From Escherichia phage KKP 3715, in sequence record OR067834.1: a DNA stretch of 64,000 nucleotides; one strand, written 5' to 3'. The notes beneath the pieces were generated by a model, which worked only from the letters and a program-made list of their open reading frames with translations, did not search any database and was not told the DNA's origin. The translations under genes and the position numbers were made by a program. This document shows positions 33,592-55,868 of this stretch, piece after piece. Each line of letters opens with the position of its first letter. The first letter of the stretch is position 1.

Positions 33592-35745
33592 TTACTTGCC
33601 AGCGAAGCGTTTAGCCACGGTGACCATTACGGTTGAATTCAATTCATCATCTGGTAATGGATTAGCCAGTTTCTTATTGAATGAGTAGACGGCTTGCTGT
33701 ACTTGAGCAAAGTCCCAACCACTGTCTACTAATGCCAGTGCGTACTTAATCATTTGATTATTACGATTACCGGAGGCAATACGACCAGCGAACCAACGCT
33801 CCAGATTGTCTAACGACTGTACTTCCTTCATCTGGTTCTGGAACTGCTCGTTCTTACTGGTACGAGGAATAAAGTCACGTACATCCAACAGATTCGCATC
33901 AAGGTTGTAATGATAGGAACCAGTCTCACAGGACATCCACTTCTTGGCTCGTTGGTTAGCAGACTCATCCGTTTCGAATGGTAGCCAAGCCATAACGTTA
34001 TTCATGAACTCTTTGTATTCCTCTGTGTCGAGGTGTAACTCATAGTTCATTGGAATAATCAGACGGAAGCGGTTCTCTTCGTCGGTATGACGCTTAGTGG
34101 TATAGGTCATGAACTTATATTCCTTCATTAGTTCATGGCACGTATGCAGAGGTACTCCACCGTCACAGTCAATAACAATCATGTTAAATCCTGGAATAAC
34201 GTTCTCTTCAGAACGATGTCCATTCTTCATGTGATGGTTTACCCAGTGCATACCGGGAGCTTGGGTTAATACATGTAGCTGGTCAAACGGTACACGTTCA
34301 CCAACATAGTCATAAGCAAAGCTATCACTATATGCCACTATCATCTCATTGGTGTCAGTCTCTTTCAGAGTCTCACCACGAAAGAACTCAATGCCCTCAT
34401 TGAAGGTTTTCTTAATAATGATGTGCTGTTTGTAACCCCATGCTGTAGCAAGAGTCATCATCTCATTACGAGCTGCATTACCACTCTTATAGAACGGTAA
34501 TGACTCCAGCAAGTCAGCATGAGTAACTTCTTTGCCCACAGAGGCAATGTACTTAGCCAGTTTCACATAGGCTTTCTCGCGATTGAGAATACCCTGGAAT
34601 GCTGCCCCGGATTCTTCTACGAGCAGGATTGCTTGTTTAAGGTGAGACATCTCAATGAATGAACTCTGATCAACAAACGCCAGTGCACCTGCCAGCTTAA
34701 GAGCCTTGAAGTAACGGTGAGAGATTTCAGCCTTACGAATTTCTTCATGGTCAGCCATAGCTTCTGCTTGTTTCTCACAATCAATTTTGTAAGTAATCAG
34801 AGCAATACCCACTGCATCTTCCACAATCATCTTAAAGCCAAACAGGTTTGGGTCAGCCAGACTATGGAAGTGGTTAGCCCACTTACCAAGAGACTGAACG
34901 TTATCCTGCTTAATAAGGTTACGGTAGATTTCTTCCGGGGTCATCGTTGCATGTGCTCGCTTGTCTAAGTGCCCAATGGCAAACAGACAACGACGTGCAT
35001 ACCCTGTATCAAGGAAGTCATAGAACTGGTCTTCAGTCTGCCCACCATCCAGCAACTTACTCGGAGTACCGAACAGCAGCAGGTTAGCAGGAGTCTTACC
35101 ATCCAGTTCTTCACCACGAATACTTTCAGCAGTGTTCTTGGTTAACTTCTGTTTTACTTTCCCCTGGTCATATAACTCAAGGAACAGGTTAAGCACTTCA
35201 ACGTTGGCAATGAGGTTGGAACCAATCTCATCAATCTGTAAGTTAATAGCACCACAACCAGCCATTAGCAGCTTGTGACGTAGCTGTTTTACAGCAGGTG
35301 CTGTACCAGAGTCGAATGTGAATGGGAATGCCCCAGCACGTTTATACTCTGCTTCAACTTTGTCGAACTCATCATTCTGGTCCGTACCCTGACGAGCAGC
35401 CCGTTCGTTAGCAATCTTCCATAAACGGTCATTTGCAATAACGGGCATGGTGTCTTCCATAAAACGCTTACGGAAGCCAGTCATAAACCCGTCTTCAATG
35501 ATATTTACCGAGTGACCTTTACCGAAACCAGATGTAGCCAACGCCATAGCGTAGATGTTTACCGGCAGGTCACCACGGTCTTTAGTTACGATGGTTGCAC
35601 CCATGCAGGATGCCATTTTAGCCAAGAAGTAGGCTACTTCGACACGGAAAAATCCCCGGTCGTTATTCTGGGTTTTATTGCAGAGCACATCTACGATTTC
35701 TTCAATCGCTGGATGGTGCACTACTCCGGTAAGGTCAATACTCAT
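33592..35745 (-). CDS. putative DNA primase / replication initiation protein
   Basis: 717 aa from the ATG at 35745, which overlaps the upstream stop as ATGA; large protein between nuclease and ATPase in the replication module. Primase function is inferred from position, not from a recognised motif. Confidence 0.35.
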   Translation of the reverse strand: MSIDLTGVVHHPAIEEIVDVLCNKTQNNDRGFFRVEVAYFLAKMASCMGATIVTKDRGDLPVNIYAMALATSGFGKGHSVNIIEDGFMTGFRKRFMEDTMPVIANDRLWKIANERAARQGTDQNDEFDKVEAEYKRAGAFPFTFDSGTAPAVKQLRHKLLMAGCGAINLQIDEIGSNLIANVEVLNLFLELYDQGKVKQKLTKNTAESIRGEELDGKTPANLLLFGTPSKLLDGGQTEDQFYDFLDTGYARRCLFAIGHLDKRAHATMTPEEIYRNLIKQDNVQSLGKWANHFHSLADPNLFGFKMIVEDAVGIALITYKIDCEKQAEAMADHEEIRKAEISHRYFKALKLAGALAFVDQSSFIEMSHLKQAILLVEESGAAFQGILNREKAYVKLAKYIASVGKEVTHADLLESLPFYKSGNAARNEMMTLATAWGYKQHIIIKKTFNEGIEFFRGETLKETDTNEMIVAYSDSFAYDYVGERVPFDQLHVLTQAPGMHWVNHHMKNGHRSEENVIPGFNMIVIDCDGGVPLHTCHELMKEYKFMTYTTKRHTDEENRFRLIIPMNYELHLDTEEYKEFMNNVMAWLPFETDESANQRAKKWMSCETGSYHYNLDANLLDVRDFIPRTSKNEQFQNQMKEVQSLDNLERWFAGRIASGNRNNQMIKYALALVDSGWDFAQVQQAVYSFNKKLANPLPDDELNSTVMVTVAKRFAGK

Positions 35746-48167: not shown

Positions 48168-48404
48168 TTACTTACGATTCCGTCCTACGAATTGTAATAG
48201 ACGTTCCTTAGCAACATCCTGTTCCTTGATAGCTACATAGTCGCGTGCATAGTAATACACACACCATAAGCCAATAGAACATGCAGAATATCGAGCCACT
48301 ACGAAGAACATCTCTTCCAGGCTCTGTGCACCATGCAGTGCAAATACAAATTCCAGAACCAGGATGATACTTATAATCATTGCTTGGATAGCTAAACGTT
48401 TCAT
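48168..48404 (-). CDS. small membrane protein (hypothetical)
   Basis: 78 aa with two hydrophobic helices. Confidence 0.35.
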   Translation of the reverse strand: MKRLAIQAMIISIILVLEFVFALHGAQSLEEMFFVVARYSACSIGLWCVYYYARDYVAIKEQDVAKERLLQFVGRNRK

Positions 48405-50291: not shown

Positions 50292-50534
50292 TTACTCTGC
50301 TTTACTGCCACCATTGGTTTGAACAACAGTTACATTTGTAACTTGGTTCTGACCTTTGTTGGACAGTGACCAAATCAGTGCTACTACCCAGAAGACTAAA
50401 GACCAGCCTAATACGATATTGAGTACACCAATGCCCCACTTAGAGGCATGGCCTCGTGCAAAAGCAATAATGGTAGGGATAAGGTATACAGCTAGTGCAA
50501 ATAACAGAACAAGGATTGCTGCTAAAGATTCCAT
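50292..50534 (-). CDS. superinfection-immunity-like small membrane protein
   Basis: Start moved to the ATG at 50534 (AGGAAC RBS). YLIPTIIAFARGH...NIVLGWSLVFWVVALIWSL matches the pattern of the Imm-type superinfection immunity family as recalled (two TMDs with a conserved GW). Confidence 0.45.
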   Translation of the reverse strand: MESLAAILVLLFALAVYLIPTIIAFARGHASKWGIGVLNIVLGWSLVFWVVALIWSLSNKGQNQVTNVTVVQTNGGSKAE

Positions 50535-50607
50535 GATGGTTCCTATGTGGGGTTGAGTTAGTTTCTTCACAAATAGCCCAACTATGCTGGGCTATTTAGG
50601 CAGCTAC

Positions 50608-52479: not shown

Positions 52480-53532
52480 TTATCCGTGAATGTAACGAGA
52501 GATGTTGGCAGCAGCCTTACGCCATTCAGGGGTAGCCTGAATTTCTGGTAATGCTTTGCCCACTGTACGGAAGTACAGAATCTTATGAGTGAACGTTTTA
52601 AAGCGTTCAATGTACTGAAGTACATCAACGAAATTATCTTCAGTGGTCTTGTTAGCCAGATGGTTAACGGTAGCCCAGCACAGGTTATTATCTTCCGGCA
52701 GTGCACAGCCCAAAGGGTCTTTGACTACCTTCTCAATCGTAATCATACGATTATATACCTGGGTGAACTGAACAAACTCTACAGCCTTACCTGGTGTAAC
52801 GAAACCACTGTAGTACAGGGAATCCTCGTCAGGCAAAGCACCTTCTGGTTGGTTCTTGAGGTCTTTATTAATGAAGTCCCAAGTACGAGGGCAACAGAAT
52901 GTTTTGTTCTTATGAGCAGGATCGAAGTCGTGCAAATAACCCGGGTTAGCATGTAAGAATGCAACCAGACGCTCATCCCATTCTTGTGGAATCATTACGT
53001 CTTCAACAAAGATGTCGAAGTTAAGTTCCATTTCGAAGTGGACGACACGGGACTGCATTGCAGTACCCAGTGGGTTAACGATAGCACGGTCAGTAGCTTT
53101 GTTACCGGCACAGATAATCATCACATTAGGGTGAAGTTTCTTCTGACCAGTCATACGGTCGAGAATCAGTTTGTATGCAGCAGCTACTACTTCTTTCTTA
53201 GCTGAGTTGAACTCATCAAGGAACAGGAGCCAGCCATTATAACCTTCTGGTACTTCATCTCCCTCAATAGGGAATAAGTCAGCGAAAGGGATAAACTCTG
53301 CTCGGTCACCATTACGGAATGGTAGACCAGACAAGTCTTCCGGGGCAGAAGTAGACAGACGATGGTCAATCAGCTTCATACCAAATTCTTCTGCAACAGA
53401 ACGAATAATTGCAGACTTACCCATGCCAGGTGATGAAGTCAGGAACGGTACGTTACCTGCTTGCAAGGCACGGATAATAAAGTTACGGGCTTGGCGTGTA
53501 TTACATACAGTCAAGGAGTCAATGCTCGCCAT
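52480..53532 (-). CDS. MoxR-like AAA+ ATPase
   Basis: 350 aa; Walker A SSPGMGKSAI, Walker B LLFLDEFNSAK; paired with a vWA gene as in MoxR-vWA chaperone systems. Confidence 0.6.
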   Translation of the reverse strand: MASIDSLTVCNTRQARNFIIRALQAGNVPFLTSSPGMGKSAIIRSVAEEFGMKLIDHRLSTSAPEDLSGLPFRNGDRAEFIPFADLFPIEGDEVPEGYNGWLLFLDEFNSAKKEVVAAAYKLILDRMTGQKKLHPNVMIICAGNKATDRAIVNPLGTAMQSRVVHFEMELNFDIFVEDVMIPQEWDERLVAFLHANPGYLHDFDPAHKNKTFCCPRTWDFINKDLKNQPEGALPDEDSLYYSGFVTPGKAVEFVQFTQVYNRMITIEKVVKDPLGCALPEDNNLCWATVNHLANKTTEDNFVDVLQYIERFKTFTHKILYFRTVGKALPEIQATPEWRKAAANISRYIHG

Positions 53533-53566: not shown

Positions 53567-53893
53567 TTAAGATTTAACGCATGGATACGCTGTATCAATC
53601 GCTAACAGAACCATGTCTGATGGTATTTTTACTGCATTAACCTTTCGGTCATACAGAATAATAGAGGCCACTCTGTCAAAAATGTGCCCTAACTTCATAT
53701 CGTCAGGTACACAGTTCTTTCCTGCTTCCACCCCCATAGTAACCATGCCCATGAAGTAACCCTGATTCACAAAGTTTGCATTATTGGCTTTGTAGTCAGC
53801 AGCAGCTTCCAGCAAGGTTGCACGACTAGATGCTTGAGCACCGAATGACAGAACTGATAAAGCTACTACAGCAACAGTAATTAAAGTTTTCAT
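53567..53893 (-). CDS. secreted small protein with cleavable signal peptide (hypothetical)
   Basis: N-terminus MKTLITVAVVALSVLSFGAQA looks like a Sec signal peptide with an AxA site; two Cys. Confidence 0.4.
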   Translation of the reverse strand: MKTLITVAVVALSVLSFGAQASSRATLLEAAADYKANNANFVNQGYFMGMVTMGVEAGKNCVPDDMKLGHIFDRVASIILYDRKVNAVKIPSDMVLLAIDTAYPCVKS

Positions 53894-54079
53894 TTAGTTA
53901 CCTTTTAACTCATTGAGTTGAAGTACTCCGGTAGGGGTTAATGACCACCCAAGACCAGCATTGAACTGTACTAAGCCCAGCTTCTTAAGAGACTGTGCGG
54001 TTTTATTATTACGGTTGCTGGTGGCAGAACCACCTTGAACCATGCGAAGGAAAATTGCTTGGGACTGAGTAAGTTTCAT
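53894..54079 (-). CDS. hypothetical small protein
   Basis: 61 aa ORF coupled to neighbours. Confidence 0.3.
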   Translation of the reverse strand: MKLTQSQAIFLRMVQGGSATSNRNNKTAQSLKKLGLVQFNAGLGWSLTPTGVLQLNELKGN

Positions 54080-54297
54080 TTCTTCTCCGGTACGAACTGC
54101 ATTACACAGTTTTGATTACGAGGGATATTCAATTCACATTCATGCTTGAGGGTTTGGGTTACAGAGTTTGGAGTAGAACCAAAGTAGGTATTAGAAATAG
54201 CTACAATTCCTGCACCAAAGAACCCTCCTAACACGAACGAGAAGAATGCAATCTCTTTATACATTTCCTGGCTCCAGATGTGAAAAACCCCAGTCAA
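54076..54297 (-). CDS. small membrane protein (hypothetical)
   Basis: 73 aa, one strong hydrophobic helix (IAFFSFVLGGFFGAGIVAI). Confidence 0.35.
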   Translation of the reverse strand: MTGVFHIWSQEMYKEIAFFSFVLGGFFGAGIVAISNTYFGSTPNSVTQTLKHECELNIPRNQNCVMQFVPEKK

Positions 54298-54325
54298 TGC
54301 TGGGGTTTATCTATCAGTTTATACT

Positions 54326-54586
54326 TTACAGACCATGAGGTCGGCATAGACTACCTGAACCAAAGGAACGGTGTCCAAGTCGGCCCAGGATTAGATTGCT
54401 TACTTCAGCAGCAGCACGGCTGAATGCTTTAAAGTCAAAGACTACGACACCAAATAGCGGGGCTGCGATAGCAGCTACCATGACCGGTGTCAGGTCATTT
54501 AGTGACATACCCAAGATTACGTGGGCAGCATAAGCAATAAGGCCCATAACAGCACTACAACCGAATCCAATAGCAATTTTACGCAT
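54326..54586 (-). CDS. small membrane protein (hypothetical)
   Basis: 86 aa, two hydrophobic helices. Confidence 0.35.
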   Translation of the reverse strand: MRKIAIGFGCSAVMGLIAYAAHVILGMSLNDLTPVMVAAIAAPLFGVVVFDFKAFSRAAAEVSNLILGRLGHRSFGSGSLCRPHGL

Positions 54587-54643: not shown

Positions 54644-54672
54644 AAAAAAAGACCCCCCTTCAATAGGGAGGT
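54644..54672 (-). terminator. Rho-independent terminator after the decoration-protein gene
   Basis: On the - strand: GACCTCCC-TATTGAA-GGGGGGTC followed by TTTTTTT. Confidence 0.6.
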
Positions 54673-54723
54673 CAATCTTGAGGGTTTCCTTTCGGGGTTT
54701 ATAACCCCAAATAAGGGATACCC

Positions 54724-55557
54724 TTACTCTGCAACAGTAACAGCGATGGTTACGTCTACAGTACCATTGGTAACTACTACAGAAGTAGCATCACCAGCAG
54801 CCACTGGTTTAACTGTCAGTACGTTACCAGCAATGGTAGCTGTAGCACGGGCGGAATCCGGAGCAGTCTTGATAGATAAAGTACCAACAGACGCTCCAAC
54901 AGGCATAGCAGTAATGGTTACAGTCTTACCATCTGTGGTATCGTCAGCAACGGACAGAGCCAGTGAAGCAGGAGTAGCTACCAGTGAGCTTGCTTCGTAG
55001 TAGCCTACAGCCAGCAGTGAGGTATCTTCTACCGTGGTTCCATTAGCATCAGTAACAATCACTTTATAAGTACCAGCAGAAGCAGCTGTTACGTTACTAA
55101 GGGTCAGTGTTGCAGTAGCAGCAGATGCGTTATCACCAGAATCAATATCAGCGAATACTGCACCAGCAGTGTTAGCTTTGTATTGCCACTTATAAGTAAA
55201 TGGTGCTTTACCGCCTGCTACATCAATGTGCCAGTTAATATCTTCACCTTCGATAGTGGAGATTACACGAGGCAGTTTGGTAGCAATAGTTAGTCGTGGA
55301 GTAGCTTGCATGTCGATAGTGACCGACTGCATATCCACGATGTTGTCAGGCCAGAAGCCTTCTTCAGCAGGGTTTTTAGCAGAGCGTTTATACAACAGGT
55401 CACGAACACCGTGAAAGATAACTAAGCTATCGGGGTAAGTGGCATCTGGATGTACAAAAGTACCTACTTCCACAGAACCACCTGGAACACTACCACCTGA
55501 ATCAAGCACGGTAGCAACGTTGGTAGTTTTATTAAACGCAATCTTTAAGGTTGGCAT
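54724..55557 (-). CDS. Ig-like capsid decoration protein (N4 gp17-like, tentative)
   Basis: 277 aa, Thr/Ala/Val/Ser-rich beta-type composition with repeated xTVxV patterns; followed by a strong terminator; position just downstream of the split RNAP genes matches N4 gene order as recalled. Confidence 0.4.
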   Translation of the reverse strand: MPTLKIAFNKTTNVATVLDSGGSVPGGSVEVGTFVHPDATYPDSLVIFHGVRDLLYKRSAKNPAEEGFWPDNIVDMQSVTIDMQATPRLTIATKLPRVISTIEGEDINWHIDVAGGKAPFTYKWQYKANTAGAVFADIDSGDNASAATATLTLSNVTAASAGTYKVIVTDANGTTVEDTSLLAVGYYEASSLVATPASLALSVADDTTDGKTVTITAMPVGASVGTLSIKTAPDSARATATIAGNVLTVKPVAAGDATSVVVTNGTVDVTIAVTVAE

Positions 55558-55603: not shown

Positions 55604-55633
55604 TAAAAAAGAAAGCCACCCTCAAGGGTGGCT
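55604..55633 (-). terminator. Rho-independent terminator
   Basis: On the - strand: AGCCACCC-TTGA-GGGTGGCT followed by TTCTTTTTTATC. Confidence 0.55.
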
Positions 55634-55814
55634 AGTTGTTGATGTGGTAAATCCAGTAAGCTATCCAACCGGCTAATACAAAACATCCGGCAGAGTACGC
55701 TCCATAGTAGCAATAAGCAAACTTGGATTTGTGGGCGTTAACTATAGTGAGTATCACAATAGCAGATAAAACTATCAGTACGGTTTTAGTAATAACATCA
55801 TAGATGTCTGGCAT
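55632..55814 (-). CDS. small membrane protein (hypothetical)
   Basis: Start moved to the ATG at 55814 with GGAGGT RBS (track start lies inside the upstream terminator); two hydrophobic helices. Confidence 0.4.
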   Translation of the reverse strand: MPDIYDVITKTVLIVLSAIVILTIVNAHKSKFAYCYYGAYSAGCFVLAGWIAYWIYHINN

Positions 55815-55831
55815 GTTGACTACCTCCAAGC

Positions 55832-55868
55832 AAAAAATAAAAAGCCCCATACCCGAAGGTATGAGGCC
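55832..55868 (-). terminator. Rho-independent terminator after RNAP subunit gene
   Basis: On the - strand: GCCTCATACC-TTCG-GGTATGGGGC followed by TTTTTATTTTTTG. Confidence 0.55.

Follow-up and report, generated by a model that had tools for sequence, protein, structure and literature searches.

Rap1a is a periplasmic homodimer that neutralises Ssp1, a type VI secretion system (T6SS) peptidoglycan DL-endopeptidase belonging to the Tae4 family (PMC3852654). Its signal peptide of 26 residues is cleaved, and the protein puts helix 4 and the α4-α5 loop over the Ssp1 active site, contacting the enzyme mainly through residues 81-94, just past Cys78; the disulfide C78-C122, which ties the α2-α3 loop to the C-terminus, is required for folding (PMC3852654). 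Salmonella uses Tae4 in the gut to kill an enterobacterial commensal (PMC5464660). T6SS immunity proteins have so far been regarded as a means by which bacteria protect themselves, or as orphan defences that bacterial mobile elements carry. Here we analyse a stretch of 64,000 nucleotides from Escherichia phage KKP 3715 (OR067834.1; hereafter the window) and in it the segment 53567-54586, which encodes four small proteins, p86, p62, p61 and p108. What makes this locus informative is p108, a virulent phage's very probable orphan homologue of Rap1a/Tai4a, whose alleles have diverged strongly. By analogy with Rap1a, p108 may act as a periplasmic inhibitor of an incoming cell-wall endopeptidase, most likely one derived from a T6SS, a reading to which we give a probability of roughly 0.45.

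p108 shares with Rap1a of Serratia marcescens (3ZFI, 4BI8) and Tai4 of Agrobacterium tumefaciens (6IJE/6IJF) a predicted cleavable signal, a mature part of about 87-95 residues and five helices, as well as the α2 motif G-[YF]-x-x-G-x-V, a Cys spacing of 44 and a C-terminal xPC. It differs from them in being a gene of a virulent phage with no Tae4/Ssp1 effector or T6SS genes nearby, and it is 12-15% identical to the solved Rap1a/Tai4 structures and some 25-30% identical to its closest bacterial family members. The orphan Rap1a/Tai genes of Enterobacteriaceae resemble it more closely in standing alone with no adjoining effector; however, they are chromosomal or prophage-like, where long-term protection of a lineage is possible, whereas p108 is expressed in lytic infection only.

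Two phage systems are also close in logic or position. The T4 proteins Sp (Spackle) and Imm are small early periplasmic or inner-membrane superinfection-exclusion proteins, and Sp inhibits a lysozyme. Sp is like p108 in that the wall of the infected cell would be protected from a peptidoglycan hydrolase, but no fold or sequence similarity was detected between Sp/Imm and p108/p86, and Sp hits a lysozyme rather than a DL-endopeptidase. In phage N4, the genes gp18-gp23 occupy the same position between gp17 and gp24 and are likewise envelope-rich, including a membrane protein (gp19), a lipoprotein (gp20, so annotated at 1257-2093 of L035, the N4 locus) and a protein with two transmembrane (TM) helices (gp23). 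These genes are unrelated to those of the window, and N4 has no detectable homologue of any of the four proteins; a Rap1a-like open reading frame (ORF) was looked for in N4 and none was found.

p108 is very probably a member of the Rap1a/Tai4a family

The N-terminus of p108 (MKTLITVAVVALSVLSFGAQA, followed by SS) has K2 in the n-region, a 15-residue hydrophobic core (Kyte-Doolittle score 1.88) and a predicted cleavage site A19-Q20-A21 before S22. Signal-peptide and TM assignments here and below are rule-based (Kyte-Doolittle 19-residue window, charge, A-x-A site). The predicted signal peptide comprises residues 1-21 (53831-53893) and lines up with those of bona fide Rap1a proteins, leaving a mature five-helix domain of residues 22-108. 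p108 is the product to which the first-pass annotation, made from the sequence alone, had ascribed a Sec signal and two cysteines, and both features hold: C61 and C105 are invariant in 18 of 18 aligned phage and bacterial sequences, and in the joint alignment the only three invariant columns are the helix 2 Gly and these two Cys. A lipoprotein was considered and rejected, as the signal peptide has no Cys and hence no lipobox. The AlphaFold2 (AF2) model of p108, with a predicted local distance difference test (pLDDT) score of 84.5, contains helices at 24-35, 41-57, 68-81, 83-86 and 91-102 and places the cysteines in the α2-α3 loop (C61) and in the C-terminal xPC motif (C105). Their spacing of 44 equals that of C78-C122 in Rap1a.

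p108 matches phrog_11132 (E 3e-55). A family alignment of phage p108 relatives (A1) was used as a profile, and an exhaustive hidden Markov model (HMM) search with it through 1.84 billion representative proteins reached Rap1a members at E about 1e-4. Six proteins matched by this profile each pass the Pfam Rap1a cutoff (52-67 bits versus 27.7). Aligning the phage family with those six members by hhalign gave 99.1% probability (E 1.6e-18), and 98.9% (E 3.9e-17) with signal peptides removed so that only the mature domains were compared. In the reciprocal direction, a tblastn search of the phage collection with an Enterobacter Rap1a protein (P0120) led to gp17.3 of Gamaleyavirus, the counterpart of p108 (33% identity, 99% coverage, E 3e-4).

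The structure-based homology search that had been proposed returned for p108 Tai4 (6IJE/6IJF) and Rap1a (3ZFI) as the top five Foldseek matches in the PDB (TM-score 0.55-0.62, probability 0.91-0.99). The S. marcescens Rap1a structure 4BI8 was also among the best matches, and unrelated structures reached TM-scores of at most 0.33. By sequence, a widened profile reached Tai4 and Rap1a in the PDB weakly (E 0.017-0.38); a PDB match of p108 to PmoD (E 2) was dismissed as chance, and NCBIfam gave no useful match for any of the proteins. These profile comparisons and the modelled fold make it very probable that p108 belongs to the Rap1a/Tai4a family. This assignment already exists in databases: in UniProt the orthologues of SP5M and Bp4 bear the name 'Rap1a immunity protein domain-containing protein', and the gene is labelled 'Tai4' in three GenBank records. 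Literature searches on phage Tai4/Rap1a and on phage-encoded T6SS immunity found no relevant study, and gp17.1-17.3 are not mentioned in the preprint on the horse phage G7C.

p108 alleles diverge at a fixed position

The phage is a Gamaleyavirus (Schitoviridae, G7C/N4-like). Escherichia phages E20 and vB_Eco_F22 match the region at 96% identity, and its shared parts are 91-96% identical to G7C, PhAPEC5/7, IME11, Bp4 and other Gamaleyavirus genomes. A gp17.3-type gene is constant in nearly all Gamaleyaviruses sampled (56 records); a locus search for the p108 family with A1 found 4 IMG/VR loci. Across Gamaleyaviruses, p62, p61 and gp24 are 92-100% identical to those of the window. At the same position p108 ranges from 96% identity down to 58% (phi G17) and 37-39% (IME11, Bp4, St11Ph5). 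The allele in Jgk1 has 42% identity, and distant N4-like contigs carry Rap1a-like proteins of 26-28% identity, in one case (L010) directly upstream of gp24. In three metagenomic N4-like contigs (L004, L006 and L009), the Rap1a-like gene lies directly 3' of a gene for a 249-aa AAA/AAA_2 ATPase and 5' of one for a 159-163-aa protein. Adjacency to an ATPase thus recurs, with p108 directly upstream of the gp24 AAA ATPase in Gamaleyavirus and beside another ATPase in these contigs. L006 also encodes a Band_7 (SPFH) protein near the Rap1a-like gene, possibly a recurrent SPFH-type envelope protein in the region.

We then compared the variable positions with the known interfaces of Rap1a. In the HMM alignment, helix 2 of p108 (QGYFMGMV), invariant within the G7C-type allele, corresponds to the Rap1a dimer helix, and positions 64-77 correspond to the Ssp1-contact residues (81-94). 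Amino-acid entropy in the G7C-type allele peaks at 59, 64-66, 70-71 and 90. Of the mature sites, 17 are variable, and these include four of the eight α3/α4 contact equivalents (P = 0.044). This pattern of variability is suggestive of specificity divergence and is not proof of positive selection, and the divergence of the alleles suggests an arms race.

The same data bear on a different target. The papain-like NlpC/P60 superfamily takes in both Tae4/Ssp1 effectors and the host's Mep endopeptidases, so a Rap1a-type plug could be retargeted to a host enzyme such as MepS or MepH, freezing wall remodelling to stabilise the cell or tune the timing of lysis. The near-constancy of the gene in the sampled Gamaleyaviruses fits such a housekeeping role better than an occasional encounter with a T6SS, and selection on p108 is purifying overall. 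A conserved target, however, does not predict alleles as far apart as 37% at one locus; N4 and other relatives do without the gene, which is therefore not essential to the infection programme; and binding of p108 to a Mep enzyme is hypothetical. We consider a host target improbable.

p108 stands without a cognate effector

No T6SS gene or Tae4/Ssp1 effector was found in the window or in G7C. The phage endolysin is, by Pfam, a GH108 muramidase with a peptidoglycan-binding domain. No NlpC/P60 or CHAP domain was found by Pfam in the endolysin, four virion proteins and two tail fibre/tailspike ORFs, and there is no NlpC/P60 enzyme in the G7C annotation. Since no cognate effector adjoins it, p108 is an orphan member of the family.

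Its nearest bacterial relatives are in Enterobacter roggenkampii/kobei, Pantoea dispersa and E. coli, carry the NCBI name 'Rap1a/Tai family immunity protein' and stand alone beside integrases or invertases. No Tae4 neighbour was detected for the bacterial and distant phage homologues, and the adjacent proteins of 120-191 aa have no Tae4 or NlpC/P60 signal. The Enterobacter Rap1a locus had no match in complete E. coli genomes, and two scans of genome contigs with Enterobacter-type Rap1a queries gave no match. The Cronobacter phage ENT47670 (NC_019927.1) contains at 34295-34564 an unannotated ORF whose product is 34% identical to Enterobacter Rap1a, suggesting that temperate enterobacterial phages may also carry Rap1a-type genes.

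We infer the dimerisation, target and protective role of p108 from the behaviour of Rap1a. Sec would export p108, with cleavage following AQA and oxidation giving the C61-C105 disulfide, and the protein would fold as a five-helix protein of the Rap1a/Tai4a type. It may dimerise via the conserved α2 helix, as Rap1a does, so that the variable α3/α4 face could block a periplasmic DL-endopeptidase of Tae4/Ssp1 (NlpC/P60-like) type at its active site. Because the phage has no such endopeptidase, the target would be exogenous. The likeliest candidate would be an amidase effector (Tae4/Ssp1 family) from the T6SS of neighbouring Enterobacteriaceae, with rival phages less likely, and the infected cell would be kept whole until the phage itself lyses it. 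The genes point the same way as the replication genes, which, together with N4 biology, suggests that expression would run from the middle phase on.

The first-pass annotation had proposed, for envelope-targeted small proteins in a lytic phage, superinfection exclusion, receptor masking or inhibition of host envelope defences. The general idea of protecting the cell at its envelope is borne out in part, by the homology of p108 to periplasmic immunity proteins acting against cell-wall hydrolases and by the accessory hotspot in which it lies, and fails for p61, which is neither secreted nor a membrane protein. Neither superinfection exclusion nor receptor masking finds direct backing here, and instead of the latter the Rap1a/Tai4a homology points to inhibition of a peptidoglycan endopeptidase.

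Inhibition of an incoming endopeptidase is favoured by the deployment of such effectors in the gut (Salmonella Tae4), by a neighbourhood with other genes for protection of the infected cell (one Imm-like, at 50292-50570, and in relatives one that is P22 gp17-like) and by the circulation of orphan Rap1a/Tai genes in Enterobacteriaceae related to the host. Several results weigh against it. The single p108 sequence scores below the Pfam gathering threshold for Rap1a (PF18602; 18.1 bits, E 0.004, cutoff 27.7), and a PDB sequence search with the phage-only profile returned no Rap1a and nothing relevant. The Foldseek E-values are weak (0.26-0.6), as expected for helical proteins of 90 residues. The enrichment of variable sites is not significant over all 12 contact residues (P = 0.18), and no positive selection was found with the Nei-Gojobori ratio of nonsynonymous to synonymous substitution rates (dN/dS), which is 0.15 both overall and in the variable segment. 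The linkage to the winged-helix gene described below, and to an AAA ATPase in distant contigs, is not accounted for. It is also hypothetical that immunity to a T6SS would pay off in a lytic cycle so short.

If p108 works in this way, a lytic phage too would be a party to interbacterial warfare, since a cell that falls to a neighbour's T6SS ahead of lysis gives no progeny. It is conceivable, although we hold it to be somewhat unlikely, that a virulent phage has in p108 a rapidly diversifying immunity protein directed at T6SS peptidoglycan amidases, which acts as a 'bodyguard' and makes the host cell resist contact-dependent killing by neighbouring bacteria in the latent period; p61 and p62, the winged-helix protein and the membrane peptide, might then belong to the same module. 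If true, p108 would represent a new class of auxiliary phage gene with a bearing on phage therapy in dense gut communities, and its naturally diversified alleles would serve studies of specificity towards Tae4/Ssp1-type endopeptidases. Were the target instead an enzyme of a rival phage or of the host, p108 would still provide, in a tractable phage of E. coli, a defined inhibitor acting in the periplasm.

The p108 gene is coupled to genes for p61 and p62

The segment 53567-54586 consists of exactly four consecutive ORFs on the minus strand, with gp17 on one side and gp24 on the other (Table 1). As the first-pass annotation had it, the cluster lies downstream of a decoration gene, the upstream neighbour being identified by Pfam and PHROG as the Hoc-like/Ig gp17. 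Its description of four secreted or membrane proteins is right for p108, p62 and p86, the last two being the small membrane proteins it had noted (one hydrophobic segment, score 2.25, in p62; two, 1.61 and 2.29, in p86). It is wrong for p61, which has no hydrophobic segment (maximum score 0.78) and no signal peptide and is strongly basic, with 7 K/R versus 1 D/E.

Table 1. Features of the gp17-gp24 interval and its flanks in the window.
Feature	Coordinates	Strand	Description	Support
gp24	52480..53532	-	AAA+ ATPase, directly downstream of p108	phrog_1297 E 3e-132, Pfam AAA
p108 (= G7C gp17.3)	53567..53893	-	predicted secreted, very probable Rap1a/Tai4a-family protein
p61 (= G7C gp17.2)	53894..54079	-	soluble basic 61-aa protein, modelled as winged helix
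p62 (= G7C gp17.1)	54076..54264	-	62 aa, one predicted N-terminal hydrophobic anchor, Cys-X9-Cys tail
Hairpin with T-run	54285..54308	-	terminator-like, closing the p86 cassette	RNA fold -13.5 kcal/mol, z -3.55
p86	54326..54586	-	optional 86-aa predicted inner-membrane protein, two TM helices	phrog_26763 E 8e-50
gp17 terminator	54651..54673	-	intrinsic terminator behind decoration gene gp17	terminator scan: 9 pairs + T7
gp17	54724..55557	-	Hoc-like/Ig capsid decoration protein	phrog_2973 E 6e-100, Pfam Ig_3

Each of the four ORFs matches a phage protein family in PHROG (E 1e-33 to 1e-55) and is preceded by a Shine-Dalgarno-like sequence, and the genes are kept in dozens of Gamaleyavirus genomes. 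Mean dN/dS (Nei-Gojobori, 12-13 genomes) is 0.14 for p62, 0.16 for p61 and 0.15 for p108, compared with 0.04 for gp24. These family matches, ribosome-binding signals, conservation and low dN/dS indicate that the four ORFs are genes rather than chance ORFs. The p62 stop overlaps the p61 start (ATGA) and the p61 stop abuts the p108 start, and we take p62, p61 and p108 to be real, co-translated genes. For p62, a TTG start at 54297 in the mechanical ORF list was rejected, lying as it does inside the terminator hairpin. The ATG at 54264 is backed by PHROG, by the 62 aa of G7C gp17.1 and by the ribosome-binding site GGAG; phrog_7508 covers residues 12-73 of the TTG ORF, and the ATG is therefore the p62 start.

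The AF2 model of p61 (pLDDT 89.9) shows a helix-helix-β hairpin-helix arrangement. Its top Foldseek matches are the winged helix-turn-helix DNA-binding domains of CggR, DtxR/MntR and MarR (TM-score on the query, TMq, 0.66-0.77; probability up to 0.99). By sequence there is a weak match to the eS19 winged helix and no significant match in the family searches (Pfam, NCBIfam). p61 is a probable nucleic-acid binder, judged by its modelled fold. It lies directly upstream of the Rap1a-like gene also in Jgk1 (L025) and in L010, where the p108 counterparts are 26-42% identical to p108. The winged-helix/Rap1a-like gene pair occupies 5790-6309 of L010 and 2016-2530 of L025.

p62 has a predicted anchor at about residues 5-24, followed by a 38-residue tail with the Cys-X9-Cys arrangement that is presumably periplasmic. 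The tail motif LKxECELNIPRNxxCVMQFVPEKK is nearly unchanged in Jgk1 despite 48% overall identity. Because the tail is kept while the hydrophobic segment has diverged in Jgk1, function is likely to reside in the tail, with the N-terminus serving as an anchor or as a signal that stays uncleaved. Both p62 and p86 are predicted envelope proteins.

This linkage brings in a reading in which the Rap1a fold has been reused, for instance as a periplasmic partner of the p62 Cys-loop tail or of a host envelope protein within a p62-p61-p108 module, or in which the genes are simply unrelated ORFans gathered in a hotspot. The p61-p108 adjacency persists down to 26% p108 identity (L010), p62, p61 and p108 occur together in Jgk1, and the start and stop codons are coupled; the interval accumulates optional cassettes, and no effector was detected near phage or bacterial homologues. 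Reuse would nevertheless have to explain why the signal peptide, the disulfide Cys pair and the α2 motif with its invariant Gly are retained and why the variable surface matches the face through which Rap1a inhibits. Immunity genes that stand alone, with no effector, are moreover a familiar pattern in T6SS immunity. On balance we consider reuse of the fold or an unrelated assembly of genes improbable.

The interval between gp17 and gp24 is an accessory hotspot

p86 has hydrophobic segments at residues 3-21 (1.61) and 32-50 (2.29) with an 8-residue loop between them. Positive charges at the N-terminus and the 34-residue C-terminal tail suggest a predicted topology with both termini inside (N-in/C-in). 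Within the family the first TM segment is variable, and the second, with the basic tail, is nearly invariant; the conserved core reads FDFKAFSRAAA...RLGHRxFGxGSLCRPHGL. p86 occurs in F22, IME11, Bp4 and Klebsiella N4-like phages and is missing from G7C, SP5M, PhAPEC7 and Bas96, and its family was found only in contigs of about 70 kb from Escherichia and Klebsiella N4-like phages. A lipoprotein was rejected, Cys10 following only about 3 hydrophobic residues and being missing in many family members, and a weak Pfam match to PrgI (E 0.022) was dismissed as chance.

A three-way alignment locates the insertion. In G7C, the gp17 terminator runs straight into the ribosome-binding site of gp17.1. The window and IME11 have an extra segment of about 355 bp, absent in G7C, that contains p86 and the second hairpin, so that the p86 cassette is inserted directly 3' of the T-run of the gp17 terminator. 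That terminator (fold -19.8 kcal/mol, z -3.16) is annotated as a stem_loop or terminator in G7C, PhAPEC7 and SP5M, and both hairpins of the window far exceed shuffled controls in stability. No promoter that could convincingly serve the p86 cassette emerged from a sigma-70 scan of the minus strand. In IME11 an additional gene, P22 gp17-like (PF17420), comes with one more hairpin, and other relatives have a gene for an 86-aa soluble protein and/or one for a 69-aa protein inserted between gp17.1 and gp17.2. Indels concentrate in this interval, where at least four cassettes are optional: it is a modular accessory region enriched for envelope proteins, in which p62-p61-p108 form the constant core in Gamaleyavirus.

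The P22 gp17-like gene of IME11 (PF17420, E 3e-45) is annotated 'superinfection exclusion' and lies directly after the decoration gene (L003 4131-4445, minus strand). Related genes are found in U1G, St11Ph5, PGN829.1, L010 and N4 (gp18), and the gene is absent from the window. The window encodes at 50292-50570 (minus strand) a T4 Imm-like superinfection immunity protein (PF14373, E 7.5e-17), equal to G7C gp27.1, a predicted second envelope-located protection gene in the same phage. p86 was considered as a homologue of T4 Imm and rejected, with no match to Pfam PF14373 and no alignment in BLASTP against the product of 50292-50570.

With such genes in the same interval of relatives and elsewhere in the phage, the cluster might serve superinfection exclusion in the manner of Spackle, p108 inhibiting the virion wall enzyme of a rival phage or a wall-degrading bacteriocin and p62 and p86 blocking DNA entry. 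The two-TM N-in/C-in layout and the size of p86 resemble Imm-type proteins, and the strong divergence of p108 alleles suits conflict between phages as well as conflict with a T6SS. The structural comparison points elsewhere: no entry described as Spackle is among the first 50 Foldseek PDB matches of p108, the only specific matches being Tai4 and Rap1a, and p86 is dissimilar to the Imm-like protein of the window and to PF14373. Known coliphage virion wall hydrolases are mostly lysozymes or transglycosylases rather than Tae4-like DL-endopeptidases, and the phage's own hydrolase is a GH108 muramidase. Superinfection exclusion is in our estimate an unlikely function for the cluster, though it ranks ahead of a host target or a reused fold.

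Further small features surround the cluster. gp16.1 (55632-55850, minus strand), a small ORF with two TM segments, lies between intrinsic-terminator hairpins at 55868-55843 and 55633-55614, so that gp17, p86 and gp16.1, each bracketed by hairpins, form a row of single-gene units. At 48168-48404 (minus strand), a 78-aa ORF has a hydrophobic N-terminal segment and no Pfam match. Small membrane proteins occur here and there in the early/middle region, and the p86-p108 cluster is not the only one. On the other flank, an HNH homing endonuclease ('phage intron') breaks up the gp24 ATPase gene in U1G (L028 2562-4496), and in Bp4 (L026) the gene is split into two ORFs; G7C (L002) carries an HNH gene, gp24.1, between gp24 and gp25, a gene that the window lacks.

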